NCBI RefSeq assembly: GCF_037300705.1
Contig: NZ_CP147776.1
Coordinates: 5,026,857 to 5,090,856, forward strand
Source of the DNA: Massilia sp. W12
GTDB lineage: Bacteria; Pseudomonadota; Gammaproteobacteria; Burkholderiales; Burkholderiaceae_D
DNA length: 64,000 bases
Reading direction: 5' to 3'
A model generated the notes under the pieces. That model ran no database searches. It was not told where the DNA came from and was given only the letters and a program-made list of their open reading frames with translations. Within the stretch, counting starts at the first letter, position 1. Each line of letters opens with the position of its first letter. Of the stretch, positions 15,801-40,667 are shown one piece after another. A program made the position numbers and the translations under genes.

Positions 15801-15861
15801 AGTCCTGGCGCGTTGCTTCAGTATTTCAGCCTGCTTGACGGGCGCATGCCAGCTGCTTGGG

Positions 15862-16071: not shown

Positions 16072-16094
16072 GCTGCTTGGGCGGACATGGGCGC

Positions 16095-16135: not shown

Positions 16136-16166
16136 ACTGCATTGCGGCGGATGCCGCAATGCTGCT

Positions 16167-17363
<1,197 letters not shown>

Positions 17364-23743: not shown

Positions 23744-24328
23744 ATGATACCTGAATTTAACATTTCTTCTGTCTTACCCCCATTTGTCGGGGCAAGCTCC
23801 GCTGAACGTAAGGGGGTATCCCCTTACCGTTGCAGTTCCAATGAGTTAGTCGAACGATTTGCCTGTTCATCAGAGCGGATTCAACTTTTACACGGGTTGC
23901 TGGACTATCGGGCAGATTTGCAGAAGCTGGGAATTATTGAAGGCTGGCAATGGTTGGATGGCAGTTTTGTGGAGGATGTTGAGCGTACTCAAAACCGGTC
24001 GCCAAACGATATCGACTTAGCCACATTTGCAAGGGTGCCAGGCACCGCCAGTCAACAAAAACAATTTGCTCTCGAAAACTTATATCTTTTTGAGCCAGGG
24101 GCTGCAAGGGCAAAGTATGGTTGCGATGCTTATTTTATAGAACTTGGCGTTCGGCCTCAGCTTTTGATAAGCGATGCATGCTACTTACAAGGGCTTTTCT
24201 CTCACCAAAAACAAACGCATCTGTGGAAAGGCATTCTGCAGATTTCTTTAAATACACCTGAGGAAGATGCCGCGGCGCGTCTTTTGCTGCAACAACGCAC
24301 AGCGCAGCATAGGAGGGGCTTATGTTGA
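23744..24328 (+). CDS. Minimal nucleotidyltransferase (pol-beta superfamily fold), 194 aa. First gene of a two-gene cassette in a lower-GC islet.
   Basis: MIPEFNISSVLPPFVG… N-terminus and the NTase signature hG[GS]-x(9-14)-DhD in WLDGSFVEDVERTQNRSPNDIDLATF. Local GC about 45-50%. Confidence 0.55.
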   Translation: MIPEFNISSVLPPFVGASSAERKGVSPYRCSSNELVERFACSSERIQLLHGLLDYRADLQKLGIIEGWQWLDGSFVEDVERTQNRSPNDIDLATFARVPGTASQQKQFALENLYLFEPGAARAKYGCDAYFIELGVRPQLLISDACYLQGLFSHQKQTHLWKGILQISLNTPEEDAAARLLLQQRTAQHRRGLC

Positions 24329-25293
24329 ATAAGCTTGAATACGAAGCGTTGGCAGCCGATTTGGCGGCAGTAAATGCCTTGTTGGCTGATCGTACCGAAG
24401 ATGAGGACCCTATCGGCTGGATGCAATATTCTTTCCGTAAAAAAGAGCTGGAACAAAAATTATCCAAAATGCAGCAGAATCAATTGCACCATGCACAACT
24501 TGGCCTTTTTTTTGGAGGCGGGCCGGTTCTGGGCTCTCGCGGGATACATGCAGATTTCGCAGGTCAAGCCTTGAATATGATGCAAACATTGATCAAAAGC
24601 CGCTGTGCTGAAGTCGAAATGGGGCCGCTCAAACAAAGAGGGAAGTTACCGCAAACTGAGCGTTCTCAATTGATTGTTACGCAAATCCTGCGCGGGTCAA
24701 TTGGCTTTGTTCTGGAAGAGGCGGGTGAGAATTCTGAAATTATCGACACTCCGCTGAAGGAGGTCGTGGATGAAATTTCACAGCTTTTGATCGCAACAGC
24801 TGAGGGTGATTCAATGAAATTTGAGCAGGCAAGCGAATCACTTGATCAGCGCATCCTGAATTCTCTTCGGGGTTTCTTTGCATTGTTGGATGAGCAGGAG
24901 GCAACTCTGCGGATTGTATGTGGTGAGAAAGACTCATCGTTCAATCGAGAGGCGATACAAAGTGCATATCTGCGTTTACAGGCATTGGAAATTCATGAGT
25001 TTTCAAAGGAATTGTGCGGCGTTTTATACGTTAGGCCAGGCAAGCGGGATTTTGAATTGCACTATTGTGATGCGGGGCAGATGGAGAAACTCGATGGCAA
25101 GTTGCTGCCACAAGCCATTGCGCAAATTGCCGGACAGGCAGAATTAGAAGGGACGCAGCTTGATCCAGAGAACATTGTGGGACGCCGTTGGCGTGTTTTG
25201 CTTAACGTTAAAGAATACAAAGAAAGAAAGCGTGAGCGCACCAGCTACGCGCTGCAAAGCCTGCTGGGCTTGGCAGATGAATTGGCGCATTGA
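24322..25293 (+). CDS. Hypothetical 323-aa helical protein, translationally coupled (7-nt overlap) to the nucleotidyltransferase gene.
   Basis: ORF overlaps the upstream stop (24322 vs 24328), with the same low-GC composition. No family motif recognised and no obvious HEPN Rx4-6H. Confidence 0.5.
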   Translation: MLNKLEYEALAADLAAVNALLADRTEDEDPIGWMQYSFRKKELEQKLSKMQQNQLHHAQLGLFFGGGPVLGSRGIHADFAGQALNMMQTLIKSRCAEVEMGPLKQRGKLPQTERSQLIVTQILRGSIGFVLEEAGENSEIIDTPLKEVVDEISQLLIATAEGDSMKFEQASESLDQRILNSLRGFFALLDEQEATLRIVCGEKDSSFNREAIQSAYLRLQALEIHEFSKELCGVLYVRPGKRDFELHYCDAGQMEKLDGKLLPQAIAQIAGQAELEGTQLDPENIVGRRWRVLLNVKEYKERKRERTSYALQSLLGLADELAH

Positions 25294-25476
25294 TCAAAGC
25301 ACTTGAATTCTCTCAGGCCGGCAGGAGTGGCTTCAACCGCGAGCCGGTGCGGGGACAGCGTAAATGCCTTGGCGCCGTCCCTTTTTTCTGACGCACAATG
25401 GGCGCGGGGCGCGCGCGGCCTGCAGCGCGCTCCCCGGCGTATCTGTTTCCATGCAATCCGCCCCCCCAGCCACACC

Positions 25477-28400
25477 TCACTCAGGCCGCTTCACCCCTGC
25501 CTTGTGCTTGCCAACCTCATGCGCCCCGCTTTTTTTGCCGGCTTGCAGTACGCTCAACAGCCGTTTGTCCAACTCACTGATATTGGCCGACATTTCGCGC
25601 ACGCTGTCCCAGATGCTGTGGTCGAGGCGCATTTTGTGGTTCATTGAGCTGAGCATGGGCAGCAGGGTTTGTTCATAGCTTTCCGTCAATTTGAGCAGAG
25701 CCTTTTGCAAGATCAGCTGCTCCGGCACGCTGATGTCAATTTTGGCCGGCATACGCTGCGCCATCGCTTCGATTTGCGCGCTGATGTCGCCCAGCAGATT
25801 GGCGATTTTGGTGGCGCCATCGGCGTCGGCCCCGCCTTGTTTGCGCAGGCGCAGAAAGTCGCTGCACAACTCCCGCCAGCGCGCCTGCTCCTGTGCGCTT
25901 GGCTGTCCCAGCAAATGCGCCAGTTTCAGCAGATTTTCTTCCGCGCCGGTGGTCAGGGTTTGCGCTTCGCCGCGATAGTGGTCGCGCAATAAAAGATCGA
26001 GTTCCGCCGGACTCATCAAGGCGGAAATCCTGGCGGCCAGCTTGGCCATATTCCGGTAACTGCCTTGCAGCTTGAAGCTTGGTTCTGTACGGTATTGCGG
26101 ATCTTGCGCGGCGGAAGCGATGTAGGCCTGGTTCACCGCCAGCACCGCGTCGCGCACCTTGCACATGCGCTGCAAGACTGCGCATATTTCGCTGATTTCC
26201 TGGCTGCTGTAAGCGTGTTGCAATTGGCTGGCGGCAATCGGCTCGCCTTGCGCCATGCGCAACAAGAGTTGCACATCCTGCGGCGCGCGGTTGTTTAAGA
26301 CCTGCAATACCGGATTGGCGACCAGCGCGTTTTCGATATACGACATGGCGAACACATCTTCATGCCCGGACAGCATATCGCCCAGATTATAAATATCGGC
26401 GCGATTGGCCAGCATGTCGGGAATGCGGAACATCTCGCCCGATTCGGTGTAAGGATTGCCCGCCATCACAATCGCAAAGCGCTTGCCGCGCAAATCATAG
26501 GTATGGCTGGCGCCGCGCCAGATCCCTTCGATACGGCGGGTGCCATCGGCTAAGCCGATGAATTTTTGCAAAAACTCGGCATTGGTATGCTGAATATCAT
26601 CCAGATACAGCATCACATTATTGCCCATGGCCAAACCCAGATTCAGCTTTTCCAGCTCCATGCGCGCGGCGCTGTTGGCGGCTTGCGCCGGATCGAGCGA
26701 GCGCACTTCATGCCCTAACACCGGGCAGTTGATACGCACAAAAATCATGCCCAGGCGGTCGGCAAGATATTCCATCAAGGTGGTTTTGCCGTAGCCGGGC
26801 GGCGAGATCAGTAACAGCATGCCCATCGAGTCGGTGCGCCGGGCGTCGCCTGCCGCGCCGATTTGCTTGGCCAGATTGTCGCCGATGGTGGGCAGATACA
26901 CATCATCAATCAAGCGGTTGCGCACAAAACTGGAGAGCGGTTTGGCTTGGAATTGTTCAAGCCGCAAACGCGCTTTTTCTGCTTGCAAGAGTTGCAAGCG
27001 CAAAGCCTGCAATTGCAGATAATGCGGGACATGCACTTGGCAGTGAGATTGCAAACGGCGCACGAATTCATTCAGATGTAAATCCAGACTTTGTTCTTGC
27101 ACGCGCGCATGTTCGCCCAATACATTGCTGATTTTCACACGCAATTCAAGCGCCAGTATGTCGCGCGGTAAGGGACAGAGTAAGGCTGCTGCCGCTTCCG
27201 GCAACACGCTGTCTTGCGTCGCACTGTGCGATGCCGCGCCGCCTTGCGCTGTCAGGCTGGCCAGCCAGGCGCAGGCAAGCTGCCAGCGTTCGGCCAGACT
27301 GAGCTCGGCCGCCTGCCACGGCAAGCTGATTTGATGGCGGCTGAAATGCTGCAATAAATTTTGCATCAAATCGGCGGCGCTGCGGCTCAACACCCATTTG
27401 TGTTCAGCTTTGAAATTGCCGCTGCCCGGATGCTGGCCCAGTTCCGCCAATAAATAACTGGCGGCCTGCTCCAGCGTCAGGGACAGATCCGAGCCGGCGA
27501 AAATATCGCTCTGATCCAAGCCCTGTTGTTGCACAAATTGCGCCAGATTGGCTTGCTGGGTTTTTGTCAATTGCTGCAGCAAGGCGCGATTGCCAAACTG
27601 GCGCCGCATCAGTTCTGCTTGCTGCGCCTGGAGACACAGCGTTTGCGCTGCGACTTGCGGCGCCAGTTGTGTGGCAAGGTGTTGCCAATACAGCAGGGCA
27701 AGCGCGCGTGCGCCGGCGTCGTAGCGCAGCAAACCGGCGCTATCCAGCATCGGCGCCAGGCTGCGCAGAATTTGCACTGCATCGTGGTCATGCAGCCCTT
27801 TTTGATAGCCTTCCTGATAGCGTGGCGCGGCAAATTGCCGTACTTGCATCAGTAACTGCGCGCCATCCACCTCTCGCACTCCGTCTTGCAGCAATTGCCA
27901 AGTCCAGCCTTCACGCCCTTCCTGCGCCGCCAGTACGACTTGCCAGGCCAGATATTCGGCGCGATACACTTGCGCGCTCTCGGCCAGGCTTTGTTGCTGC
28001 CAATACGCTTCCAGCGCTTGCAGGCGCGGTTCATCGACCGGGAAAAAATAATCGGTGCCGGTCAAGTGATAGCACATCTGCTGCTTGTGCAAGACCATAT
28101 TCAGGTCTAAGGGCTGGCTGTTGACGGTGAAGGCGTGGCGCCCCAGGCGTATCGTATTGCCGCTGACTAATTCGGTGCGGTCGCGCAAAGCGCGCTGCCC
28201 CTGTTCGCGCAGATTTTTCAGCTGCCCGGCCAGATCATCGGCGCTGACGTTGCTGCCCAGTTTGCGCAAATCTTGAATACTGCTTTTGAGTTTTGCCACC
28301 AGGGCATCGGCGGCAAAGTACGCTTCCAGTTGCGCCGCTTCAGTAAATTGCTGCAAGCGTTTCGGAATGCTGTGCAAGACGCGTTGCGCGGCGTCGGTAA

Positions 28401-30780
28401 TGGCTTGCACACGCTGCGCGCGCTGGGCTTGCAGACTCTGTTTTCTGGCCTCAAACGTGACATATACGGTTTCACGCTTGGCGGCGATTTCGGCCAGGAA
28501 TTCGGCTTGCTCGGCAAAGCGCCCTTCCTGCTCTTCCAATTGACTCAGCAAACGGGTCAGCAATTCCTCGCAGCGCTCCGGCGTATCGGCTTGCTCCAGT
28601 GCGCTTTCCACTGCCTGCGCGAACAAATTGAACTGCGCCGCAAATTCGCCCGCCGCTTCGTCCTTGCTGAATTGCTGATGACGCTGGCGGACTTCTGCGC
28701 GCAGCTTATTCACATCGGCAAAAATGCTGGAGATGCTCTGCAAAATCCGGGTGCGCAGACTGGCGTCGCTGACCGCCAGACTGGCCAGTAATTCAGTCAG
28801 GCCATTCAAATTCAGGGCGGTGGCTTCGAGTGTGGTTTGCACCGTTTGCAGCTGTGCCGAGGTGTGCAATTTAGGCAATTCCAGCCGATGTCTGGCCAAT
28901 TCCGCAGAAATTTTGGCAAATGCCTGTTCCTGGCTTAAAAATTGCACGGTGCGCTCAGCGACGCGGCTTTCTTCTTCCTGCAATGCCCGGTCCAACTCCG
29001 CCAATTTGACAAGGTCGATGTAACGTTGCTCTTGCATACTGGCTAAGCGGCCACGTTCGAGGCGCAAGGCGGCCAGGGCTTCGACAAAATCGGTCGGCGA
29101 TTGCCAAAGGCGGCTGGCGATCTCGCTCAATAACTGGCGCTGCGTGCTGGCGGTCTGTTGCAACTGCTGTTGCGCCTGGCGTTGTACTGCGGCGACTTTG
29201 TCAAACTCATCAATTGTGCTGTTGGCCACCTCAATGATCAAACCCATTTCCTGGCCAGGCTGATGGGCCGCGTCTTCATTGAGCCAGTGATAGGCATCCA
29301 CGGTGCGGCGGCATTGCTTGATCAAGCTTTCAAACATAAAGCGCGTTGGCAATTTGTCTTTGCCGCTGGCGTCTTGCTCATGCACCAACTTGCAGATCGA
29401 ATACATTTCAGAGATGGCGCGCACCAGTTCGCGATTGCCGATTTTCCCTAAAAAGCTCTGCTTAGGGACTTGTTTGGCGGCGTGCTCTTCGCTCTGAAAC
29501 GGCGTTTGCCAGAGCTGCATCGGGTGGTTACGGGTCGGCTCCTGGTTTTCCGCAGTAAACAGCAAGATGCGGCCATCCGGAAAACGCGCATAGCCATGCG
29601 CGATCATGGGTTGGGACAGTGTTTTATTGATCAGGTTATAGCTCAGCAAGACATAGATGCCTTCCTGCACGCCATAAAACACATACAGCACATCTTCGCC
29701 GTTCGCCGACAGCACGCGGCGCTTGAACTGCAAGCCGGCGGGCATCTCGGTAAATGTCCGGCTTTCACCGCTTTGCAAGGCATAACCGACAGGAAAGACG
29801 ATGCCATGATCCTCGGGCAATTGCACGCAAGATTGCCCAATTGCATCTATCCTGCTCACCTGTTGCAGGCGGCGGTTAAAGATTAAATAGCGATTTTCCT
29901 GCTCGCGATAGGGTTTGATGCGCAACAGAATCAATTCGCCCACACTCGCGTAGGCGATTTCCGCATCGTTCAAAGACTGGTTGCGGTCTGTCACCGGCTC
30001 GCTGTAAATCCCCAAGCCGGATTCGGTATTGTTTTCAATCTTGATCGTCAAATCGCCATCGATGGTCTCGACAAACAGGGTGTCGAGAATATTGATATGG
30101 CTGTGTTTGCCAATGACGTGTTGCTCACGGGTGGTTTTGTGCCATTCAAAGTCATGGCTGGGCGGCAGGGCGATATCGCGTTCGCCGCGATTGTCGATGT
30201 AAGCGGGCTGGCCGGCATCGGCCAGTTGCCAGCGGAACACACGCAAGTCGCTGGCGCGTTCGCCAATTTGAAATGCGGCCAGCAATTTGCCCTGATGCAC
30301 ACGCAATTGCACCAGTTGCGTATTGCGGTAATAGCTGTACAACTCGGTGAATTCGGCGACAAAGCGCGGGTCTGCCAGGAAGCTGCCCTCTATCGGCAGC
30401 GCTTGCAACTCGAATTGATCGCTGTCGCCGGCCTGTTGCAAATGGTACAGGGCAAACACATCGGCAACCTTGGTTTCCTTGCGCAAGCCAATGAACACGT
30501 TGTAGCCGAACAGTAAAACATCGCCGACCAATACCAAATCACGCGCCACGCAATTGTTTTCCGTGCGTGCGCGGGTGCGCGCCAGCAGCCTGGTGTCATC
30601 CCGGCCAAATTCATCGATACGCGCCTGATTCAGGCTTGCGGCCTTTTGTAATAAGGCTTCAGCTTGTTGCGCCAGACGTTGGCGCAATAAATCGAAACTG
30701 CTGGAATGCACGGTCGCGCGTTCGGCCTCAGCTTGGGCGAGGCTGGCGTCTTGCGCAGCGCCGGTTTCAGGAAGACTCAT
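25477..30780 (-). CDS. Giant (1767 aa) multidomain protein with an AAA+ ATPase module (MoxR/AAA_5-like) in the C-terminal third and long predicted coiled-coil/helical regions. It is the last gene of the flotillin-PspA operon.
   Basis: Walker A LLLISPPGYGKTTLMEYLA (nt ~26775-26795), Walker B-like VMLYLDDIQH, and an AAA_5-type GNPY…RIPDMLANRADIY segment. There is a 134-bp gap to the upstream flotillin gene. Confidence 0.75.
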   Translation of the reverse strand: MSLPETGAAQDASLAQAEAERATVHSSSFDLLRQRLAQQAEALLQKAASLNQARIDEFGRDDTRLLARTRARTENNCVARDLVLVGDVLLFGYNVFIGLRKETKVADVFALYHLQQAGDSDQFELQALPIEGSFLADPRFVAEFTELYSYYRNTQLVQLRVHQGKLLAAFQIGERASDLRVFRWQLADAGQPAYIDNRGERDIALPPSHDFEWHKTTREQHVIGKHSHINILDTLFVETIDGDLTIKIENNTESGLGIYSEPVTDRNQSLNDAEIAYASVGELILLRIKPYREQENRYLIFNRRLQQVSRIDAIGQSCVQLPEDHGIVFPVGYALQSGESRTFTEMPAGLQFKRRVLSANGEDVLYVFYGVQEGIYVLLSYNLINKTLSQPMIAHGYARFPDGRILLFTAENQEPTRNHPMQLWQTPFQSEEHAAKQVPKQSFLGKIGNRELVRAISEMYSICKLVHEQDASGKDKLPTRFMFESLIKQCRRTVDAYHWLNEDAAHQPGQEMGLIIEVANSTIDEFDKVAAVQRQAQQQLQQTASTQRQLLSEIASRLWQSPTDFVEALAALRLERGRLASMQEQRYIDLVKLAELDRALQEEESRVAERTVQFLSQEQAFAKISAELARHRLELPKLHTSAQLQTVQTTLEATALNLNGLTELLASLAVSDASLRTRILQSISSIFADVNKLRAEVRQRHQQFSKDEAAGEFAAQFNLFAQAVESALEQADTPERCEELLTRLLSQLEEQEGRFAEQAEFLAEIAAKRETVYVTFEARKQSLQAQRAQRVQAITDAAQRVLHSIPKRLQQFTEAAQLEAYFAADALVAKLKSSIQDLRKLGSNVSADDLAGQLKNLREQGQRALRDRTELVSGNTIRLGRHAFTVNSQPLDLNMVLHKQQMCYHLTGTDYFFPVDEPRLQALEAYWQQQSLAESAQVYRAEYLAWQVVLAAQEGREGWTWQLLQDGVREVDGAQLLMQVRQFAAPRYQEGYQKGLHDHDAVQILRSLAPMLDSAGLLRYDAGARALALLYWQHLATQLAPQVAAQTLCLQAQQAELMRRQFGNRALLQQLTKTQQANLAQFVQQQGLDQSDIFAGSDLSLTLEQAASYLLAELGQHPGSGNFKAEHKWVLSRSAADLMQNLLQHFSRHQISLPWQAAELSLAERWQLACAWLASLTAQGGAASHSATQDSVLPEAAAALLCPLPRDILALELRVKISNVLGEHARVQEQSLDLHLNEFVRRLQSHCQVHVPHYLQLQALRLQLLQAEKARLRLEQFQAKPLSSFVRNRLIDDVYLPTIGDNLAKQIGAAGDARRTDSMGMLLLISPPGYGKTTLMEYLADRLGMIFVRINCPVLGHEVRSLDPAQAANSAARMELEKLNLGLAMGNNVMLYLDDIQHTNAEFLQKFIGLADGTRRIEGIWRGASHTYDLRGKRFAIVMAGNPYTESGEMFRIPDMLANRADIYNLGDMLSGHEDVFAMSYIENALVANPVLQVLNNRAPQDVQLLLRMAQGEPIAASQLQHAYSSQEISEICAVLQRMCKVRDAVLAVNQAYIASAAQDPQYRTEPSFKLQGSYRNMAKLAARISALMSPAELDLLLRDHYRGEAQTLTTGAEENLLKLAHLLGQPSAQEQARWRELCSDFLRLRKQGGADADGATKIANLLGDISAQIEAMAQRMPAKIDISVPEQLILQKALLKLTESYEQTLLPMLSSMNHKMRLDHSIWDSVREMSANISELDKRLLSVLQAGKKSGAHEVGKHKAGVKRPE

Positions 30781-30913
30781 GTCTGGCTATTCCGTGGTGA
30801 AGATTGGACAAAGCTGCACTGTGCGCGATGATATGCCGCCAGGCATGCGGCTGGCGGGACATCATTACGGGCCAGGGGCGTTTGCAGCCTGCCCCCCAGC
30901 CTGGCCACCCGCC

Positions 30914-33088
30914 TTAATTGCCGCTGTTGAACTTGGTCAACAGATTTTGCAAGGCGGCTTTCTGCTCTGCCGAGCCTTCTTTGCTGATTTTGTTCAAAAA
31001 GGCCGTCATCGACAGGTTTTGCAATTCGCCCGCCGAGCCGCCCAGGGCCGCCAGCAAACTGCGCACATCGTTGAGCATGTCGCGCTCGCCGCTTAAATGG
31101 TCTTTCAAACCCAGTTGCAAGGTTTTGCTCTTTTCAATCGCGCCATCAATGCCTTTACCGAGCGCCAGCGCGTTGACGAAGCGCTCAAAATAGTCGCCTT
31201 CGCCGCCCACGATATCAATCTTGGCGTTGGCCAGCGCTTTACCCAGCAACTCGGCTTGATCTTGCGCCACCGAGATTTGCGCTTCGATGCCTTTGACGAT
31301 TTGCTGATTGCTGGCTTCCAATTGCATGCGGAATTCTTCATGGGCGCGGGTTTCGCTGCTCATGCCGGACATGGCTTCAAATTTTTGCCGCAGACCGACC
31401 GATTCAGCAGCAAAACGGGTTTGGATCACATGCGCCTGCGCATCGCCATGTTTGATCATCGCTGCCGCATCTGCGGTTTTCACGGCGGCTTCGGCCAGGC
31501 CCAATTGTTCATTGCCTTGCGCCTGCGCTTGCAACTTCAGGCGCAGCGCTTCGGCCTCTGCCGCGCCTTGTTTGGCTTTGGCTTCGGCTTCGGCAATCAT
31601 GACCTGGGCTTGCGCCTGGCCAATTTGTTGCGTGCCCTTGGCTTGCGCTTCCATTTGCAGGCGGGATGCTTCTGCCTGCGCAGCGCCTTGCCGCAAAATC
31701 GCTTCCGAGCTGGCGATTTTGACTCTGGCTTCCGCCAGGCCTTCTGCCGCCAATTGTGCTTCGGCTCCTTCGGCTTCGCGTTTTTTGGCTTCGGCGGCTT
31801 TTTCCGCCACCTTCAACTGGGCGTCGGCCAGGGTCAATTCCTGCGCCGCTTTGTGTTTCGCGCTGCGCTCCTCGCCTTCAGCCTCAGTCACCGCCAACAC
31901 CATTTTTTCCTGTCCCTTGGCTTCGGCGGCGATCACCAGCGCTTTTTTATTGCGGTCGGCCTCGGCCACCACCCGCACTTCTTTAATCGCTTCCTCTTGC
32001 TCTGCGACCGTGCGCTCAACCACAATGCGCTCGCGGATCACATCGGCAATCGCTTTTTTCTGAATTTCCACCACTTTTTCTTTTTCAATCACTTGCAGCG
32101 CCACTTCTTTTTCGCGCTCGACGATTTCCAGCTGGCGCGCCCGGATCACACGTTCTTCTTCAATCGCCACCGCCCGTTTGCGATTGTTTTCCGCCACTTC
32201 TTTTTCCCGCGTGGTGTTTTCCTGCTGCACCATCACCTGTTGTTCCGCTTGCAGGCGCGCCAGTTCAGCTTTGGCGTGCTCCTCCGCTTGAATTTTCATG
32301 GTTTCCGCCTGCTCGCGCGCTCTTACTGAGCTGACTTCGCGGTTTTGGCGTGATTCGGCATCCGCTTGCTGGCGCTCCAGTTCCAAAATCGCTTCGCGCG
32401 TTTCGACATCTTTTTTCTTGATCCGCATTTCTTCATCGCGCGTCACTTCATTGGTGCGGATATGCTCGACTGCAGTTAATTCGGTAATCTTTTTAATCCC
32501 CTGGGAATCGAGAATATTGCTCGGATCGAGCTTGTCCAGCGGGGTTTGTTCGAGGTAATCGATGGCCGCATCTTCCAGCACATAACCGGATAAATCGTCA
32601 CCAATCTGGCGGATGATTTCATCGCGGAATTTTTCGCGCGATTGGTATAAATCAATAAAGTCCATGCTTTTGCCCACGCTCTTCAAGGCTTCGGCAAACT
32701 TGGCGGAAAACAGATTTTCCAGCGTGTCTTGATGCGATGCGCGCTCGCAGCCAACCGCCTGCGCCACACGCAACACGTCTTCAGCGGTCTTATTGACTTG
32801 AATGAAGAATGTCACCTTGATGTCGGCGCGGATATTGTCGCGGCAAATCAAGCCATCCTTGCCTTCGCGGTCAATTTCGATGGTCTTGAGCGAAATTTCC
32901 ATGTATTCCGCTTTGTGAATAATCGGGTACACCATGCCGCCGGTGAACGTCACATCGGGCTGGGAACGCAGGGTGTTGATGATCAACGCATGACCTTGCT
33001 GCACCTTGTGATAGAACTTGGCGAACATGGCCAACATACCAAACAAGACCAGGGTTCCAATCCCGGCTGACAACAATAAAATGTCCAT
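30914..33088 (-). CDS. Flotillin-like SPFH/band-7 protein with a very long Ala/Glu/Gln-rich coiled-coil (YqiK/FloT-like).
   Basis: N-terminal TM MDILLLSAGIGTLVLFGMLAMFA then an SPFH core, then hundreds of residues of AEAEAKAKQGAAEAE-type heptads. ORF-track start 33232 trimmed to MDILL (33088). Confidence 0.75.
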   Translation of the reverse strand: MDILLLSAGIGTLVLFGMLAMFAKFYHKVQQGHALIINTLRSQPDVTFTGGMVYPIIHKAEYMEISLKTIEIDREGKDGLICRDNIRADIKVTFFIQVNKTAEDVLRVAQAVGCERASHQDTLENLFSAKFAEALKSVGKSMDFIDLYQSREKFRDEIIRQIGDDLSGYVLEDAAIDYLEQTPLDKLDPSNILDSQGIKKITELTAVEHIRTNEVTRDEEMRIKKKDVETREAILELERQQADAESRQNREVSSVRAREQAETMKIQAEEHAKAELARLQAEQQVMVQQENTTREKEVAENNRKRAVAIEEERVIRARQLEIVEREKEVALQVIEKEKVVEIQKKAIADVIRERIVVERTVAEQEEAIKEVRVVAEADRNKKALVIAAEAKGQEKMVLAVTEAEGEERSAKHKAAQELTLADAQLKVAEKAAEAKKREAEGAEAQLAAEGLAEARVKIASSEAILRQGAAQAEASRLQMEAQAKGTQQIGQAQAQVMIAEAEAKAKQGAAEAEALRLKLQAQAQGNEQLGLAEAAVKTADAAAMIKHGDAQAHVIQTRFAAESVGLRQKFEAMSGMSSETRAHEEFRMQLEASNQQIVKGIEAQISVAQDQAELLGKALANAKIDIVGGEGDYFERFVNALALGKGIDGAIEKSKTLQLGLKDHLSGERDMLNDVRSLLAALGGSAGELQNLSMTAFLNKISKEGSAEQKAALQNLLTKFNSGN

Positions 33089-33155
33089 ATTTTTCCTTCC
33101 TGGCTTTGTTAATCGGTATAACTGATGAACCGCAAGCTTCTCTTGCACAAATGAA

Positions 33156-33827
33156 TTAATTGGAACTGTCTTTATCCAGCGCCGCCACTTCGTAGCGCTG
33201 CTTTGTTTCGTCATAGGACAAAATGACAGCAATGGATTTTTTTCGTAAATGATTGGGGGTTTTTGCCCACACCCGGATATTCAGATTGACTCCCGTATCT
33301 TTGACTTCAGCACGGCCAAACTTTTCATCCACCGACAGCGTGGTGATCATGCAGCTCAAGCCGGTCAGGCTGTGATTGCTGCGCGCATGGTGTTTGACAA
33401 ACAATGGGCGCAGCGGTTTGATGGCCAGCGCAGACAAACGGATCGAACAGGCCGCGCTGAGCAATAAAACCATCGCGCCGGCAAGATAACGCAGCACATC
33501 ACTGCCCAACATCTGCAGCAGATATTTATGAATCAGCGCACTCAGCAACCAGGTGAAAAACACCAGCAGGGTCAGGACGATGGACAAGGGCACGCCGCCC
33601 AGGCCGAGCGCCACCAGATATGAGGCCAGCGAGTGCAAATCCGTGCTTTCGGCATGGGCATCAGTATGCAGATGCACATCAGCTGCGCCATCGCCGCTAT
33701 CGAGTTCCAGGTTGTCCCCCAGATCGACCAAGCCGATGATGGAAAACAACCAGTACACCAGCAAAATCGCCAAAAAGATGCCCGGTATGATGGTGGGAAA
33801 ACTGCCGAGCAATTGCCAGAGCGTCAT
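33156..33827 (-). CDS. YqiJ/NfeD-like inner-membrane protein (partner of flotillin).
   Basis: Several TM helices followed by a C-terminal soluble beta-rich segment (…EKFGRAEVKDTGVNLNIRVWAKT…), resembling the NfeD/YqiJ arrangement upstream of the flotillin gene. Confidence 0.55.
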   Translation of the reverse strand: MTLWQLLGSFPTIIPGIFLAILLVYWLFSIIGLVDLGDNLELDSGDGAADVHLHTDAHAESTDLHSLASYLVALGLGGVPLSIVLTLLVFFTWLLSALIHKYLLQMLGSDVLRYLAGAMVLLLSAACSIRLSALAIKPLRPLFVKHHARSNHSLTGLSCMITTLSVDEKFGRAEVKDTGVNLNIRVWAKTPNHLRKKSIAVILSYDETKQRYEVAALDKDSSN

Positions 33828-33830
33828 CCG

Positions 33831-34199
33831 TCACTCCTCTGTAGTCGTGTGAGACAGGCCCGCACCCAATTTAGCGGGTGCGGGGTGCAGCTCTGCAAAC
33901 GCAATCAAGGCTTGATGCAAAGCTTCTTTGACGGCCCGTTTGTCCGTTAATGTTATGCCAAAGCGCTGCGCCAGCAAAGCATAATCGGCTTCGCTCAAAC
34001 TCACGGTGAGGCGTGGCCGCACCGGTTTGCCAAGGCAGGGCAGATTGAGGATTTTGCGGATTTGATCGGAGGGAGAAAGCTGGTTCTCCCAGGCCGCATA
34101 ACGCACCGCCTCAATCACCTGCATCTCAACGTCGAATGCCACTTGCACCGCGCGTATCGCATCATCCGAGCTGCTCCAGCGTGAAGATGTTTTGACCAT
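33831..34199 (-). CDS. Small hypothetical protein (122 aa), possible RHH-like DNA-binding regulator of the operon.
   Basis: Tightly packed between the PspA-like and YqiJ-like genes (2-4 nt gaps). …RPRLTVSLSEADYALLAQRFGITL… is reminiscent of a CopG/RHH beta-strand + helix. Weak. Confidence 0.4.
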   Translation of the reverse strand: MVKTSSRWSSSDDAIRAVQVAFDVEMQVIEAVRYAAWENQLSPSDQIRKILNLPCLGKPVRPRLTVSLSEADYALLAQRFGITLTDKRAVKEALHQALIAFAELHPAPAKLGAGLSHTTTEE

Positions 34200-34200
34200 C

Positions 34201-34920
34201 TCAATCCACTTTCGCTAAATCCGGCCCGGCTGGCGCAGCTTTCGCCTTCAGTCTGGCCATCACCTCGGCTTTTTTGTCTTGCAATTCGCCGATGCCGGCT
34301 GCCGCCAGTTTGGCATCCAGGGCGCGATCACTCAGTTCGCTATCGAGCTGCGCGCGCGCTTGCATGCGGTCGGCATGATCTTGCTGACGTTGCTTGATAC
34401 GCTCCATGGATTCTTTGGCGTTCAGCAATTTCGAGCCGCTGCTGCCCATGCTGTCCTCAATCATGCTGGTGGCGCGGTACACGCTCTCGGTGGTTTTGGC
34501 CATCGCCAATTGCCGCTCATGCTCGCGCAAACTGGTTTCAGCATTCACAATCAAGCCCTTTAAGCGCTGCAATTGCCCGTCAAAAGATTGGTGTGCGGCG
34601 TTTTCTTCCGCCAGTGCGGTTTCCAGGTTGGCGATTTTATTCGCCACCTCCTCGGCCAGCGCGGCTTCATTTTTCTGCAAAGCTTGCAAAGCCTTGTCTT
34701 CATAGTTGGCGATTTCTTTTTGCAAGCGCTCGATTTCGCGCGCACTTTGCATTTGTTTGGCCATCAGCGCGGTTAAGTCCTGCCTGGCTTTGGCGACATG
34801 CGCCTTGGCCTCGACAATTTCCTGTTCGTAAATGGTGGTGGCGTTTTGATCGACCACGCTTTGTCCCATTTCGCGTAAATCGCCCCGCAGCATCGTCAGA
34901 ATTTTTGAAAAGATAGCCAT
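34201..34920 (-). CDS. PspA/IM30-family protein (YjfJ-like paralog).
   Basis: MAIFSKILTMLRGDLREMGQSVVDQNATTIYEQEIVEAKAHVAKARQDL… is a canonical PspA/IM30 N-terminus with a coiled-coil throughout. Confidence 0.8.
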   Translation of the reverse strand: MAIFSKILTMLRGDLREMGQSVVDQNATTIYEQEIVEAKAHVAKARQDLTALMAKQMQSAREIERLQKEIANYEDKALQALQKNEAALAEEVANKIANLETALAEENAAHQSFDGQLQRLKGLIVNAETSLREHERQLAMAKTTESVYRATSMIEDSMGSSGSKLLNAKESMERIKQRQQDHADRMQARAQLDSELSDRALDAKLAAAGIGELQDKKAEVMARLKAKAAPAGPDLAKVD

Positions 34921-34950
34921 GATATAGCCCTCCTTAATTAGTGCAGATTT

Positions 34951-35403
34951 TTAAACACTCAGTAAATATTCAGCGAACACGTCCAATGCTTCCAAGGCAT
35001 TGTCGGCCAGCATCACCACATCATGCGCCACATCCTCCACCCTGGCGTCTGTCGCCAGGGCGCCGAAAATCACATAATGCTGGCCGATGCGGCCAAAGTG
35101 AGAGAGCGGAATCGCCACATTCAAATCCAGCATCGCCTCGTGCATTTCACTGCGCCGCGCAGGATTGATTTCAGCTTCGCGCCACAGATAGCAAATGCAC
35201 AAAATCTGGCTTGGCGACACCGTGACAAAAACCGGTAATTCTTCACGGTTTTCAATGCTGATGCGCAACACCGGGACGGTTTGCGCATCAGCGGCGGGCA
35301 ACTTGGAGACAGAAAACGACGTTGCGCCTAATCGTTGGCCCAGGGCCTGTTCCAAACCGGATAGCTGCCCGGAAGCTTGGCCCGGTTCATTCATTTCAAC
35401 CAT
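34951..35403 (-). CDS. YjfI-like (DUF2170-type) protein, first gene of the operon.
   Basis: 150 aa and acidic, immediately upstream of the PspA-family gene as in enterobacterial yjfI-yjfJ. Confidence 0.5.
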   Translation of the reverse strand: MVEMNEPGQASGQLSGLEQALGQRLGATSFSVSKLPAADAQTVPVLRISIENREELPVFVTVSPSQILCICYLWREAEINPARRSEMHEAMLDLNVAIPLSHFGRIGQHYVIFGALATDARVEDVAHDVVMLADNALEALDVFAEYLLSV

Positions 35404-35439
35404 TTTTCCCCTCGTCTAGTTGTGGATCTGTCGTTTGCG

Positions 35440-35490
35440 GTACGACATAATATGTCAAAGTGTAGCGCAATGACATAATATGTCAAGAAA
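35440..35490 (-). promoter_or_regulatory. Putative sigma70 promoter (TTGACA -35, TACACT -10) with two copies of a 13-bp near-palindromic operator GACATATTATGTC (minus-strand reading) overlapping the -35 box and the start region.
   Basis: The minus-strand reading is cTTGACATATTATGTCattgcgcTACACTtTGACATATTATGTCgtac. It lies 40-90 bp upstream of the yjfI-like start. Confidence 0.5.
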
Positions 35491-35597
35491 TTTCTGGAAG
35501 GGAACTCGGAGCGGGTCTGGCGCACTGGCCGGGCCGGGGCGCGGCGAAGAAGCGGCGGCGCGACGGCGATGCAGGCGGAAGGGGTTTGCAAGACGGC

Positions 35598-35697: not shown

Positions 35698-36764
35698 GAA
35701 ACTATAACAACTCAACCGCAGGAACCCCCTCTGCAAGCATTATAGCTTTCCGGGGTGAGAGAGGAAACTATAACCGCCACACCGTGTACTGATCAGCAAA
35801 CTCAATTATAGCTTTCCGGGGTGAGAGAGGAAACTATAACATTTAATGATGCCGGAAAACCTGCCGAAAAATTATAGCTTTCCGGGGTGAGAGAGGAAAC
35901 TATAACCGTCGCCAAAGTGGAAGCGCAAGAAATTGGATTATAGCTTTCCGGGGTGAGAGAGGAAACTATAACATGAGCGAAAGCGGAATCGTCTCCGTTC
36001 TCATTATAGCTTTCCGGGGTGAGAGAGGAAACTATAACAATTTGACGGGCAATTTCCTCCTCCGCAAGATTATAGCTTTCCGGGGTGAGAGAGGAAACTA
36101 TAACTTTCCATGCCTAAAGCCTGAGTCAAGCTGTATTATAGCTTTCCGGGGTGAGAGAGGAAACTATAACTGGTGCGGTAGCAATTATTTTGTTGATAAT
36201 ATTATAGCTTTCCGGGGTGAGAGAGGAAACTATAACCGTCAAGATGTCGCTCAGCGCAGTCGAGCTATTATAGCTTTCCGGGGTGAGAGAGGAAACTATA
36301 ACCCTCGCCGCGCGCCTGTATGCGATGGTGGAATTATAGCTTTCCGGGGTGAGAGAGGAAACTATAACCATCGCCGCGCTGTCCTCGACTCGGTTGCGAT
36401 TATAGCTTTCCGGGGTGAGAGAGGAAACTATAACTGTTTTTGCGTTTTGTTTTGCATATTGTTTATTATAGCTTTCCGGGGTGAGAGAGGAAACTATAAC
36501 TTCCTCTTCTTCTTTGACTTGTGATATTGTATTATAGCTTTCCGGGGTGAGAGAGGAAACTATAACGCGCTTGGCGCTGGCCGTGCGCGGCTCCACATTA
36601 TAGCTTTCCGGGGTGAGAGAGGAAACTATAACCTGTCATGCGGCGGCCTGCGGCTTGTATGCATTATAGCTTTCCGGGGTGAGAGAGGAAACTATAACCC
36701 CGATGCCGCAAGCGAGCCGTCCCCACGGATTATAGCTTTCCGGGGTGAGAGAGGAAACTATAAC
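35698..36764 (-). CRISPR. CRISPR array 1: 16 full 36-bp repeats plus one 11-nt repeat stub, about 30-bp spacers, type II-C repeat. It is inverted relative to array 2, so crRNA sense is the minus strand.
   Basis: Repeat ATTATAGCTTTCCGGGGTGAGAGAGGAAACTATAAC (plus-strand reading) at 35739, 35805, … 36729 with a 66-bp period. The 16 spacers are all different. Confidence 0.95.
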
Positions 36765-38134
36765 CCATTCCATTACACACAACTCAGTCTTGCAATGCGC
36801 CCATCTCGCGTAGAGTCCTGATTGTCTGAGCCGAAACTTGAACATCCTGTAGACCTCGCCAGATTGTTTTCACGCCAGGCTCCCCGTCATGTTTTCGTGC
36901 GAGAAAACCGCCGACACGGGCTACCATGCGCAACACCTCGTTCAAGCCCGGCATAGCGGGCGCCTTCTTTTTATTGAGCAGATAAGCCGCTCGGATTTCG
37001 TCGGGATCGAAGAACAAAGTGGCGTCGAGATCCGGACAGGTACGTCCCTTACGCATCAGGTACGCGATACGCCAGGCCACCACCATAAACAGCGCCAGCG
37101 CCCGCTCCAGCCGGGCCATGGTGGACAGTTGCAGTTCTTCGACTTCACAGCCATTCTTGAGCACATTGAAAAAGATCTCAATTTCCCAGCGCGCGCGATA
37201 CCAGTCGATCAGTTCGCTGGCGTCGGCCAAGGTTTCCGCGCGGCGGTTGGTCAGCAAGCGCCATTCCACCGGTTTGATGCCCGTCGGCGGCTGCACTTCG
37301 GATGCTACGATGCAGGTCGCCTCGATCTTGCCGCGCTTGCCATCACGCAGCAGAACGCGCTTGGCCCACACCTGCTGACGTACCTGGCGCGCCCTTTGCT
37401 TGCCGCGCCCGGCCATGATGAAGCTGATCTCGCCCAGCGGCATACCGGCCGTGGTTTCAGGCCACAGGCGTTTGCTTTCGCCGTCAGCCAGACAGCGATC
37501 ATGCTTGGCGCGCACCAGCCAATCGGCAGGCGTGCCCAATTCGGCTGCGCGCCGCAGCATTCCCATCATGTCCGCTTCGCGGTCAGCCACATACACCAGA
37601 CGGGTATTGGGCAACTGGGTCGCCTGCTCGGCGACCCGCTCGTAGCCCTCTATCCAGCGTTCACTCTCTTTTACGCTGGCGGGGCGCTTGCCGTCAGCGC
37701 CACGCTCTTCACGCGCCCACATCCAGCCATCGAGCAGGCCCAGCGGCTCACGCTCTGGCGACACCGCGTAGGTCGGATGCACATACATGCCGCGCCGCGC
37801 TTCGTAGTTGAGCGGGCCGAGGCCGTCGATGTTTTGGCCGCTGAAGTCCAGTTCGGTGGTGTCCTGAATGCACAGAATAACCTTCTGCGTCGCCATGCGT
37901 TCCATGGTGCGCGCCCAATGTGGCGCCAGAATGCCATCCCATGTCACCTCCGGATTGGCCATAAAGCGGTAGGCCGCTTGCGTCTCCGTCCAGTTGTCGC
38001 ATGCTTCGGGAATGCTGGCCTTCGGTTTGGTCGCGAATGTTTCCATCAATTTTCTCGCCCTGTTGTTAAGGCGGGCATCGCCAAGATCGAGTCCGCCAAA
38101 CTCATCGTCGGTCCAACTCTGTGCTGCTTGCTTT
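36765..38134 (-). mobile_element. IS4-family (Tn5/IS50-like) element, 5'-truncated by the IS3 insertion. Transposase CDS 36784-38134; the ORF-track N-terminus to 38289 is read-through into the IS3 end.
   Basis: The transposase reads …LGDARLNNRARKLMETFATKPKASIPEACDNWTETQAAYRFMANPEV… (parallels the Tn5 Tnp N-terminus) and …YRARWEIEIFFNVLKNGC… (the YREK signature of the IS4 family). The first ~50 codons of ORF 36784..38289 are identical to the IS3 end sequence. Confidence 0.75.
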
Positions 38135-39017
38135 CCGGAGCGTGTCAAGGTAGTTGTCGCAAAAAATCGATTAAGCAACCATGCGCTGGTCCAGCTTTGA
38201 TGGCGGATTAAGCCAGACCTCATTGGGCGCCAGCCAGGGCCGTGTATGACGCTTCCAGCGCAGCGGATGGCGTTGCCGGGCTTCGGCATAAACGTCGCGT
38301 CGGCGCTCCAGGATCACATTGGCGGCGCCCGTATGGCGCTGCTCCGGCGTCACATAGGCCAAGGCGCTGTGCAAATGGGTGCAGTTGTACCAAGTCACAA
38401 ATTGCAGTGTCCAATCCCGAGCCTGCGCGATGCTCTCAAAGCCTTTGGCTGGATAGCTGGGCGCATATTTACAGGTGCGGAACCACGCTTCGATATGGGC
38501 ATTGTCATCGGAGACGCCAGGCCGGCTATGCGAGGAGCCGATGCCCAGCATTTCCAACTTGCTCTTGAGCGTGTGCGAAGTTTGCGCAGCACCGTTATCG
38601 GCATGCAGCACCAATGGCGTGCAGCGGCGCTGTTCACGCCAGCAGGCGCGCTCAATCAGTAAAGCAGCTTCCTCACCATTTTCCCGCTCGTGGACTTCCC
38701 ATGCGACCAGTTTGCGGCTGTAAATATCGAGCACGGCATACAGATAAAAATACTGGCCGCGCACCCGGCTGGGCAGGTACGTCACGTCCCAGCTCCAGAC
38801 CTGGTTGGGGCCATGGGCGACATGGCGCACCGGCTCGCTGGCCACAGGAGCCTTGCTGCGACCCCGGTGATGCTGCTGGTCGGCGCTTCTCAGCACACGA
38901 TAGAACGACGATTCCGATGCCACATACGCTCCCTCGTCGGCCAGCCGCGGCACGATCTGCGCTGGCGGCAAATCGGCAAAGCGCGGTTCATGACACAGTT
39001 GCAGGATGCGCTGACGT
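38135..39017 (-). mobile_element. IS3-family copy C, left part. It carries the orfB C-terminal 266 codons (38171-38971) and the left IR. Copy C is split by insertion of copy B, and its right part is 40668-41433.
   Basis: 38135-39017 is identical or near-identical to 39018-39900 of copy B. ORF 38171..38971 equals residues ~84-349 of the copy-B OrfB. Confidence 0.85.
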
Positions 39018-40667
39018 TCCGGAGCGTGTCAAGGTAGTTGTCGCAAAAAATCGATTAAGCAACCATGCGCTGGTCCAGCTTTGATGGCGGATTAAGCCAG
39101 ACCTCATTGGGCGCCAGCCAGGGCCGTGTATGACGCTTCCAGCGCAGCGGATGGCGTTGCCGGGCTTCGGCATAAACGTCGCGTCGGCGCTCCAGGATCG
39201 CATTGGCGGCGCCCGTATGGCGCTGCTCCGGCGTCACATAGGCCAAGGCGCTGTGCAAATGGGTGCAGTTGTACCAAGTCACAAATTGCAGTGTCCAATC
39301 CCGAGCCTGCGCGATGCTCTCAAAGCCTTTGGCTGGATAGCTGGGCGCATATTTACAGGTGCGGAACCACGCTTCGATATGGGCATTGTCATCGGAGACG
39401 CCAGGCCGGCTATGCGAGGAGCCGATGCCCAGCATTTCCAACTTGCTCTTGAGCGTGTGCGAAGTTTGCGCAGCACCGTTATCGGCATGCAGCACCAATG
39501 GCGTGCAGCGGCGCTGTTCACGCCAGCAGGCGCGCTCAATCAGTAAAGCAGCTTCCTCACCATTTTCCCGCTCGTGGACTTCCCATGCGACCAGTTTGCG
39601 GCTGTAAATATCGAGCACGGCATACAGATAAAAATACTGGCCGCGCACCCGGCTGGGCAGGTACGTCACGTCCCAGCTCCAGACCTGGTTGGGGCCATGG
39701 GCGACATGGCGCACCGGCTCGCTGGCCACAGGAGCCTTGCTGCGACCCCGGTGATGCTGCTGGTCGGCGCTTCTCAGCACACGATAGAACGACGATTCCG
39801 ATGCCACATACGCTCCCTCGTCGGCCAGCCGCGGCACGATCTGCGCTGGCGGCAAATCGGCAAAGCGCGGTTCATGACACAGTTGCAGGATGCGCTGACG
39901 TTCTTCATCAGACAGTTTGTGCGCAGGCGCTGGCCGCTCTGCCTCCGGTCGGCCGTCAGGACGAATTTCACCGTCACAACGCCAACGTTCCAAGGTGCGC
40001 ACGCTTAGACCGAGTTCGGCGCATGCCAATGCTAAACGCGCACCAGCCTTCCGGGCCTGCAGAATATCGGCGATCATTTCAAGGCGCTGGGGCAACGCAG
40101 TCATGCGTCCTCGCCGTCGATCCCCAGCGCCTCGTACTTTCGGGACAGAACCAGCAAGGCCGCTGTTTCCGCCAGCGCTTTTTCTTTACGCCGCAAATCC
40201 TTTTCCAGCTCCTTGATGCGCTTTTTGTCTTTGGCCCGGGCTGCAGCATCGGCTTGACTGCTCTGGCTGCTAAGCGCAGCGTGCATTTCTGTGCGCCAGC
40301 GCTCCAGTTGCGCTACCAGCAAGCCTTTACGGCGGCAATACTCAGCCAGCTCTGCTTCGTTCAGCGGCGCCGCTTCCAGTACTGCAGCAAATTTGTCCGC
40401 AGCACGCCATTGCTCGGGGTTTTGTCCGTCGCCAGGCACAACACGACCGGCTTCACGGGCCTGCTTCCGCCACAGGTAAAGCGTAGCCTCTGGCACGCCG
40501 CTTATCTCAGCGACCTCGGCCACAGACTTGTTTTGTGGTGCGCTCATCAGCTTGAGCACATGTTCTTTCTTCTCTTGTGTGTATTTCATTATCGTCTGTT
40601 CCATCGCCCCCGGGATGGATTAGAACTCCAAATCACTGGAGGCGACAACTATTTTGACACGGGGGGG
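39018..40667 (-). mobile_element. IS3-family insertion sequence, copy B (complete, about 1.65 kb). Its orfA is 40101-40589 and its orfB (DDE integrase-type) is 39055-40104. Imperfect terminal IRs (cgtgtcaaGGtagttgtcgc / cgtgtcaaAAtagttgtcgc) and a flanking TT/TTC duplication.
   Basis: OrfA MKYTQEKKEHVLKLM…GVPEATLYLWRKQ (HTH) has an ATGA overlap with OrfB (…HADNGAAQTSH…DNAHIEAWFRT…, rve/DDE). The flanks are gacgTTC[IS]TTCttcatcagac, where the uninterrupted sequence is gacgttcttcatcagac. Confidence 0.85.

Follow-up and report, generated by a model that had tools for sequence, protein, structure and literature searches.

Within a 64,000-nt stretch of the Massilia sp. W12 genome (contig NZ_CP147776.1; hereafter the window), six co-oriented minus-strand genes for a DUF2170 (YjfI-like) protein, a PspA/IM30 protein, a small protein, a YqiJ-like membrane protein, a flotillin-like protein and a giant ATPase are located beside a locus of clustered regularly interspaced short palindromic repeats (CRISPR). 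The question raised by this locus is whether the genes form an uncharacterised system, perhaps one of defence, as had been put forward in the original prediction. They are a real and correctly delimited operon, of a kind that has already been described, both by Ravi et al. 2024 and as bacABCDEF of Pseudomonas aeruginosa (PMC2587700, PMC10948618), and the idea of an uncharacterised system was therefore not upheld. The interpretation preferred here, which is considered reasonably probable, is that of a six-gene bac-type PspA-flotillin-AAA+ envelope-stress operon (bacABCDEF; class 1 of Ravi et al.), autoregulated, with an ATPase that remodels membrane assemblies.

All six predicted open reading frames (ORFs) were recovered at their predicted positions (Table 1), and Pfam or NCBIfam matches were obtained for four of the six proteins. 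The intergenic gaps are, in gene order, 30, 1, 3, 73 and 133 nt; the tight packing described earlier was borne out at the flotillin/giant junction (133 nt, 134 nt having been claimed), and the YqiJ-like/flotillin gap was corrected from 68 to 73 nt. Inside the operon, terminator-like and promoter-like matches did not exceed the level of shuffled sequence. A single transcript may be expected for the W12 genes by analogy with P. aeruginosa, the source of the reverse transcription PCR data, in which bacA to bacF were found on one transcript (PMC10948618). A 76-aa ORF directly after the giant gene (25245–25475) was rejected as spurious and has no conserved counterpart in the 80 related loci described below.

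Table 1. Features of the operon, its control region and its surroundings, in nucleotide positions of the window (domain rows also give residues of the giant protein).
Feature	Position	Strand	Evidence or remark
Operon	25477–35403	minus	six ORFs behind one promoter
DUF2170/YjfI/BacA-like protein, 150 aa	34951–35403	minus	Pfam PF09938, E=5e-28
PspA/IM30 protein, 239 aa, YjfJ/BacB type	34201–34920	minus	Pfam PF04012, E=6e-33
Small conserved protein, 122 aa, putative ribbon-helix-helix-like C-terminal half	33831–34199	minus	without family match
YqiJ-like protein with three transmembrane segments, 223 aa, C-terminal beta-rich domain	33156–33827	minus	architecture, gene order
Flotillin-like SPFH protein, 722 aa counted from ATG	30914–33082	minus	Pfam PF01145, E=1.7e-11
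Giant ATPase, 1767 aa (BacE/PA3728 family)	25477–30780	minus	DUF3686 + DUF7902 + AAA+
Giant protein, residues 43–498, DUF3686	29287–30654	minus	Pfam PF12458, E=6e-196
Giant protein, residues 619–702, DUF7902	28675–28926	minus	Pfam PF25472, E=8e-19
Giant protein, residues 1318–1500, AAA+ core	26281–26829	minus	Walker A GYGKTT 26779–26796, Walker B LYLDD, sensor-1 N1442, R1460
Sigma-70-like promoter	35459–35486	minus	-35 TTGACA 35486–35481, 16-nt spacer, -10 TACACT 35464–35459
Operator O1, perfect palindrome GACATATTATGTC	35472–35484	strandless	overlaps -35 hexamer
Operator O2, second copy of GACATATTATGTC	35444–35456	strandless	just 3' of -10 hexamer
Low-GC cassette, GC 0.47	23744–25293		DUF6932 protein matches PADLOC candidate PDC-M63A, E=1.7e-13
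Type II CRISPR arrays	35739–36765 and 41434–43441	opposite orientations	36-nt repeat GTTATAGTTTCCTCTCTCACCCCGGAAAGCTATAAT, ~16 and ~30 repeats
Cas9 gene	44774–47956	minus	type II locus

The bacABCDEF operon of P. aeruginosa (PA3732–PA3727; Mace 2008, Wallart 2024) encodes the same families in the same order (DUF2170, PspA-like, short NfeD/YqiJ-like, flotillin, giant) and is one compact operon under negative control, as is proposed here for W12. In a bacA mutant, the BacB–F proteins were increased 6–13-fold (PMC10948618); mutation of bacB (PA3731) impairs biofilm formation, swarming, rhamnolipid production and virulence, and mutation of bacA impairs the same traits (summarised in PMC10948618). 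BacC has been described as a 'short NfeD', and BacD is the flotillin PaFlo3. The W12 operon differs by an additional 122-aa ribbon-helix-helix (RHH)-like gene between pspA and the yqiJ-like gene, and by the absence of a sixth, bacF-type gene downstream, where related loci carry genes for phospholipase D (PLD) or a rhomboid-like protein.

The operon class described in section 19 of Ravi et al. 2024 (PMC11237479) comprises a CesT/Tir-like YjfI, PspA, a band-7/flotillin protein, a YqiJ/YuaF protein with three transmembrane (TM) segments, a novel AAA+ ATPase and sometimes a PLD. As the class is set out in that section, its domain set is exactly that of W12, which has no PLD gene; in the same source, abbreviated flotillin-YqiJ(-AAA+) operons are given as more widespread than the full class. 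E. coli yjfIJ, which encodes a DUF2170 protein and a PspA paralogue, and the canonical pspFABCDE are similar to the W12 genes in that a PspA/IM30 effector is combined with a dedicated controlling partner in a stress-induced operon; compared with pspFABCDE, however, the W12 operon has no PspF, PspB, PspC or sigma-54 promoter, and its PspA partner is a CesT-like chaperone rather than an enhancer-binding protein. The yqiJK pair of E. coli and the yuaFG pair of B. subtilis share with W12 a 3-TM NfeD-type gene immediately upstream of a flotillin gene with a long coiled coil, but DUF1449/NfeD membership of the W12 protein is not detectable by sequence, and to our knowledge neither pair is linked to a giant ATPase or PspA gene.

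To compare related loci, one genome of each species was searched by pattern scan; this gave 569 confirmed relatives of the giant gene, of which the best 80 loci were kept. These span Beta-, Gamma-, Delta- and Zetaproteobacteria, Myxococcota, Actinobacteria and one metagenome-assembled genome of the Clostridia, and, being the best-scoring of the 569, are biased towards Proteobacteria. Locus genes were called by using iterated hidden Markov models built from the six W12 proteins. In every one of the 75 loci with upstream DNA, the giant gene is immediately preceded by a flotillin gene, and in 70 of 71 with enough DNA this in turn is immediately preceded by a YqiJ-like gene; the DUF2170-PspA pair is present in 33 of the 80 loci, all of them proteobacterial, and the small gene in 13. 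The YqiJ-like protein, flotillin and giant ATPase are an ancient, invariably linked trio, and the DUF2170-PspA pair is an accessory add-on of some Proteobacteria. Conserved linkage of the giant gene to flotillin and PspA genes, on which the original prediction had made its case depend, was thus found. Its picture of PspA and flotillin modules fused to one another is correct insofar as both are joined in one operon; the ancient unit, however, is YqiJ-like/flotillin/giant, to which the PspA-DUF2170 pair has been added. Since the trio is conserved and the PspA pair optional, the flotillin assembly, and not PspA, is indicated as the primary partner of the ATPase.

More than 4,400 giant homologues were identified among 8,000 candidates scored. 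The closest of them, those of other Massilia, Duganella and Janthinobacterium among others, are 64–87 % identical to the W12 protein, and identity falls to ~54 % across other Burkholderiales, to 48 % for Pseudomonas homologues in the same operon position and to 43–48 % between Proteobacteria and Actinobacteria, with the gene order fixed. Searches with the N-terminal 520 residues gave 695 representatives of 50 % identity clusters (243 at E≤1e-30); among the 150 of these that were listed, DUF3686 is N-terminal in nearly all proteins of 1,550–2,036 aa.

Further genes vary between the loci. Most close relatives have, between their flotillin and giant genes, a gene for a 176-aa Zn-ribbon protein with two CxxC pairs and a match to Pfam Zn_ribbon_TFIIB (L082, 9467–9997; L084, 9424–9957; nine further Burkholderiales loci); the corresponding gap in W12 is only 133 nt and holds no such gene. 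A PLD (HKD) gene lies 3' of the giant gene in 12 loci (L004, L006, L008, L010, L016, L017, L023–L025, L031, L033, L052), and a rhomboid-like gene in eight (L018, L021, L022, L024, L025, L027, L031, L035); W12 has neither. Without Zn-ribbon, PLD and rhomboid-like genes, the W12 operon is a reduced six-gene form. On plasmid pQBR103 of P. fluorescens SBW25 (L081; NC_009444.1, 85.5–104.6 kb), a yjf-type polyamine operon (PspA, rhomboid, DUF2491, DUF350, DUF1190 and glutathionylspermidine synthase genes) is located directly upstream of the YqiJ-like, SPFH and giant genes, and two of the operon classes of Ravi et al. are thus joined in one array.

The giant protein had been described as about 1300 residues of coiled coil ahead of a MoxR/AAA_5-type ATPase. 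The first part of this description did not hold: the first ~500 residues are DUF3686, of mixed, beta-rich composition, and only residues ~500–1300, which contain DUF7902, are helix-rich. DUF3686 is reported as a beta-propeller in the section of Ravi et al. 2024 (PMC11237479) that treats these operons; no literature was found under the name 'DUF3686'. The ATPase part of the description was confirmed. The motifs GYGKTT, MLYLDD and GNPY...RIPDMLANRADIY are all present, and Walker A, Walker B, sensor 1 and R1460 are invariant among 38 homologues. The proposed Pfam search for AAA_5 and additional domains gave, besides DUF3686 and DUF7902, weak AAA, AAA_22 and AAA_5 matches at residues 1318–1445. 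In an AlphaFold2 (AF2) model of residues 1240–1767 (mean predicted local distance difference test, pLDDT, 73.8), an AAA+ alpha/beta core is followed by a long helical tail, and a beta-hairpin is located immediately ahead of the sensor-1 strand. The closest structures are the MoxR proteins CbbQ and NorQ, at only 13–14 % sequence identity. By sequence, no solved relative was found: PDB searches with the single sequence and with a 12-sequence profile gave P-loop and coiled-coil noise only.

On the strength of the model, the AAA_5 match and the hairpin, the giant ATPase is predicted to be a MoxR-like AAA+ protein; its AAA+ fold has Walker A, Walker B, sensor 1 and an arginine finger. It shares with the MoxR ATPases (CbbQ, NorQ, RavA), its best structural match, the AAA_5 assignment and the beta-hairpin before sensor 1, and differs from them in ~1300 extra N-terminal residues, a 250-residue helical C-terminal tail and the absence of a VWA partner. 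MoxR ATPases normally act with a VWA-domain partner; no VWA domain was detected by Pfam in the five other operon proteins.

A CesT-type chaperone fold is indicated for the W12 DUF2170 protein by its match (E=9e-10) to 8Q8O, the CesT-like crystal structure of BacA. The W12 PspA protein scored 114.8 bits against PF04012 (cut-off 33.9) and only 16 bits against TIGR02977, the equivalog of the canonical E. coli-type PspA. For the YqiJ-like protein, no Pfam or PDB sequence match was obtained; with three distant homologues included, neither DUF1449 nor NfeD was matched in Pfam at E up to 0.1, and a PDB profile search with the family gave nothing usable. The YqiJ/NfeD label given to it earlier agrees with its architecture, which is conserved in the alignment of homologues, with one source product name ('DUF1449 family protein') and with the literature, and lacks Pfam or PDB sequence support. 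The public name 'ubiquinone biosynthesis protein' for the same gene (33156–33827) is without domain or context support and is probably a propagated mis-annotation.

The 722-aa flotillin gene is present as predicted, with a ribosome-binding site (GGAAGGA) upstream of its ATG. Its product has a hydrophobic N-terminus with a TM segment, an SPFH/Band_7 domain at residues 26–231 and then ~350–400 residues rich in Ala, Glu and Gln; by composition, residues 200–600 are helix-rich. The protein gave no match to the Flotillin model of Pfam or to the FloT equivalog.

The promoter/operator predicted ahead of the first gene is real and consists of a sigma-70-like site with two overlapping palindromes. The promoter (TTGACA-16-TACACT) has 10 of 12 consensus matches and is the top-scoring site of the region; the centres of O1 and O2 are 28 bp apart. 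Exact GACATNNNATGTC occurs at only two sites across the window, both at this promoter. No sigma-54 -24/-12 element (TGGCAC-N5-TTGC-like, two mismatches at most) was found upstream of position 35403, and the W12 promoter, being sigma-70-like, differs in this respect from that proposed for bacABCDEF.

The palindrome GACATNNNATGTC was found at the same promoter position in 12 of the 13 small-gene loci (in the thirteenth, from Methylomonas, the motif is present in a rearranged form); the 67 other loci lack it. In 1.75 Mb of related loci it occurs 18 times in exact form; all 18 sites lie within the 12 small-gene loci, immediately upstream of the DUF2170 gene, and overlap the TTGACA hexamer. The 122-aa protein has 552 homologues, none with a Pfam domain, and a nearly invariant family core that includes RPRLTV.L..DY..L; a few family members gave sub-threshold Pfam RHH_1 or FitA-like matches. 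In its AF2 model (pLDDT 67), residues 61–104 form an extended segment and two helices, and a PDB profile search gave nothing usable. From the shared occurrence of gene and palindrome, the 122-aa protein is likely to be the autoregulator of the operon. A reading of it as a tandem double RHH was dropped because residues 11–38 are modelled as one long helix.

In loci without the small gene, all 20 of 20 DUF2170 proteins carry a conserved N-terminal extension of ~50 aa (KSSAHYQRxFRQRLREQGLVKKEVWILPEHA) with a weak MazE-like match (PF11455), and a different palindrome, T[TC]ACATGT[GA]A, is present in 17 of these 20 loci, usually in two copies; it occurs 33 times in the 1.75 Mb, 31 times at the DUF2170 promoter of extension-type loci. 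In extension-type loci (L016–L061), paired TTACATGTRA sites flank a TTGA(C) -35-like element ~20–90 nt upstream of the long-form DUF2170 start. The W12 DUF2170 protein is a short form without the KSSAHYQR...VWILPE extension found in Pseudomonas species other than P. aeruginosa and covers only positions 96–202 of the 206-position NCBIfam BacA model, the length of which implies a long form in P. aeruginosa; the W12 operator GACATNNNATGTC likewise differs from the TTACATGTRA of Pseudomonas-type operons. The division crosses taxonomy, in that Comamonas and Lampropedia are of the extension type, and Thiodiazotropha, Methylomonas and Marinobacter of the small-gene type.

Taken together, these patterns suggest two interchangeable modules, a stand-alone RHH-like protein or an N-terminal extension on BacA, and autoregulation of the operon probably depends on one or the other of two regulator/operator pairs that exclude each other. 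An extension that serves as a repressor module in Pseudomonas-type operons would fit the negative control by BacA. In crystal structure 8Q8O, the BacA chain (146 aa) seems to begin at an internal Met and to be without the extension. If the true start of BacA were at the extension, the published sigma-54 site would fall inside or beside the coding sequence, as judged from Pseudomonas-type homologues and not from P. aeruginosa itself. The RHH-like small gene, with its strict pairing with operator GACATNNNATGTC, appears to be a new detail: in the operon descriptions of Ravi et al. 2024 (PMC11237479), an RHH factor is given only for another class, that with spermidine synthase, and neither the RHH gene nor the operators are mentioned for the present one.

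In two Marinobacter loci (L062, L071), the DUF2170-PspA-small genes are transcribed divergently from the YqiJ-like-flotillin-giant genes, and the GACATNNNATGTC sites are located at the 5' end of the stop-to-stop DUF2170 ORF, adjoining the short intergenic region common with the trio. From this position, one operator region might control both units.

The mechanism that we infer, with its physical interactions, ATPase substrate and repressor binding, would run as follows. In unstressed cells, the 122-aa RHH-like protein would bind the two GACATATTATGTC palindromes, over the -35 hexamer (O1) and the transcription start region (O2), and repress the operon; membrane damage, including phage infection in P. 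aeruginosa, would lead to derepression. Flotillin and the YqiJ-like protein would then come together on the inner membrane as an SPFH cage or microdomain, and PspA, freed from its DUF2170 chaperone, would polymerise on the damaged bilayer and repair or remodel it. The giant ATPase, probably as a ring-shaped oligomer, would dock on the flotillin assembly via its N-terminal domain and helical region and use ATP in remodelling or recycling the polymers of flotillin and PspA or their client proteins, in parallel with FtsH in HflK/C cages and Vps4 on ESCRT-III. These are functional analogues only, in which an SPFH cage or ESCRT-III polymer is combined with an AAA+ ring at a membrane; the giant protein, by comparison with FtsH and Vps4, has no protease domain and no Pfam MIT match, and no TM segment was noticed on reading its sequence.

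Several points weigh against the envelope-stress interpretation. The Massilia operon is known from its sequence, and the experiments are those in P. aeruginosa. There, deletion of paFlo3 reduced biofilm by only ~20 % and gave no strong stress phenotype (PMC13086221), and the sigma-54 promoter proposed for bacA by its authors (PMC10948618) is a different regulatory logic, for which W12 has no site. Physical contact of the giant protein with flotillin, the YqiJ-like protein or PspA is so far a prediction for every organism. The fold of its N-terminal domain is taken from the published assignment, a VWA partner of the kind normally needed by MoxR ATPases is not encoded in the operon, and the locus sample has the proteobacterial bias described above.

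PspA/IM30 is a bacterial ESCRT-III, and the main role of the giant protein might accordingly be to take the PspA polymer apart in the manner of Vps4, with flotillin and the YqiJ-like protein as a membrane platform only. The genes share one operon in W12 and in P. aeruginosa, and AAA+ partners of PspA have been suggested, in the part of Ravi et al. concerned with them (PMC11237479), to act in ATP-dependent remodelling. About half of the loci, however, including all of those from Actinobacteria and Myxococcota, have the trio with no PspA gene within 10 kb upstream, and the missing MIT match also speaks against this proposal, which is judged unlikely.

Equally doubtful is the possibility that PspA-DUF2170, flotillin-YqiJ and the ATPase are independent modules that are co-transcribed from a shared stress promoter and do not form one machine. 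PspA-YjfI and YqiJ-flotillin pairs occur alone in many genomes, according to the same part of Ravi et al. (PMC11237479), the Marinobacter pair is divergent from the trio, and the P. aeruginosa flotillin mutant is far weaker in phenotype than the bacA or bacB mutants. That the trio is adjacent and in constant order across phyla nevertheless argues for physical interaction of at least those three proteins, and even in the divergent loci the operator at the DUF2170 start adjoins the intergenic region common with the trio.

The proposal from which the question arose, an anti-phage system that senses infection through membrane perturbation, blocks the phage or kills the cell and resides in a defence island beside CRISPR-Cas, is regarded as quite improbable. 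The flanks are broadly as originally described, with the low-GC cassette on one side and CRISPR-Cas and an insertion sequence (IS)-like cluster on the other, and the operon does lie between a PDC-M63A candidate gene and a type II CRISPR-Cas9 locus with IS-like ORFs; PA3728–PA3732 were induced in all phage-infected P. aeruginosa samples, and the PLD gene of some relatives is a possible effector. Phage induction, however, is equally expected of a general phage-shock or membrane-stress response. In PADLOC-DB v2, the six operon proteins gave no meaningful match (P-loop and coiled-coil noise only, E 4.6e-4 or weaker). Among 50,697 phage records none had the giant gene, and of 72,556 plasmid records only 13 did, most of these being megaplasmids or chromids. 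Its 43–48 % cross-phylum identity with fixed gene order is that of a slowly evolving cellular machine and not of a fast-turnover defence gene. In three other Oxalobacteraceae (Massilia sp. PAMC28688, M. antarctica and Janthinobacterium), the neighbours of the operon are unrelated housekeeping genes, among them genes for a tRNA synthetase, peptidases, transporters and TonB-dependent receptors, and the W12 flanks showed no synteny with other Massilia, Duganella or Burkholderiales loci. The CRISPR-Cas, IS and low-GC neighbours are therefore specific to the W12 genome and lie outside the system, and a role in defence is not supported by the position next to CRISPR.

Some features of the surroundings were recorded in passing. 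In the low-GC cassette, the DUF6932 gene is followed by an overlapping 323-aa ORF without Pfam or PADLOC match. Between the CRISPR blocks (36784–41473), large ORFs are clustered that are IS- or transposase-like by appearance only; from this arrangement, the CRISPR array may have undergone an insertion or inversion mediated by IS elements. At 817–3323 of the window, three overlapping 306-aa GTG ORFs (GC 0.38–0.40) are spaced by exactly 793 nt, and the same 16-mer occurs at 1771, 2564 and 3357, which looks like a unit of ~793 bp triplicated in tandem, in AT-rich DNA of probably foreign origin. A 221-bp unit is present in two tandem copies of 94 % identity at 15841–16276.

A role of the giant protein as a DNA repair or chromosome-partition ATPase of SMC/SbcC type, as given by NCBI and UniRef product names, by the Pfam one-line description of DUF3686 ('ATPase involved in DNA repair') and by the same designation of PA14_16190 (bacE), can be dismissed almost entirely, since Pfam and NCBIfam gave no SMC, SbcC, RecN or DNA-binding domain, RuvB similarity is confined to the P-loop region (E 0.04 or weaker), the modelled fold is MoxR-like AAA+ and not an ABC/SMC head, and the invariant neighbours are membrane proteins. 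The public name 'DNA repair ATPase' (25477–30780) is without domain or context support and is probably a propagated mis-annotation, which may stem from coiled-coil similarity. Neither this reading nor the Vps4-like motor, the independent modules or the defence system is favoured over the envelope-stress operon.

No new system is added by this work, and CRISPR adjacency alone no longer suggests a new defence system here. What has been sharpened is the assignment of the ATPase, which is tied to flotillin and the YqiJ-like protein and not to PspA and is predicted to be MoxR-like, together with the probable autoregulation of the operon. The class is widespread (Proteobacteria, Actinobacteria, Myxococcota, Deinococcus, Hymenobacter) and it matters, in that it affects biofilm formation and virulence in P. 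aeruginosa, is phage-induced and has a mislabelled protein as its largest and best-conserved component. The regulator pairs provide a concrete hypothesis for repression by BacA and an experimental handle, by operator mutation or deletion of the RHH gene. As a wider and tentative proposal, the trio may be an ATP-driven machine that remodels SPFH cages and, where present, PspA/ESCRT-III polymers from Actinobacteria to Proteobacteria, with its expression set by one of two interchangeable DNA-binding modules, each having a palindromic operator of its own. If this were true, the trio would be a bacterial counterpart of HflKC-FtsH or ESCRT-III/Vps4, and the extension fused to BacA would explain mechanistically the repressor behaviour of BacA in P. 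aeruginosa.

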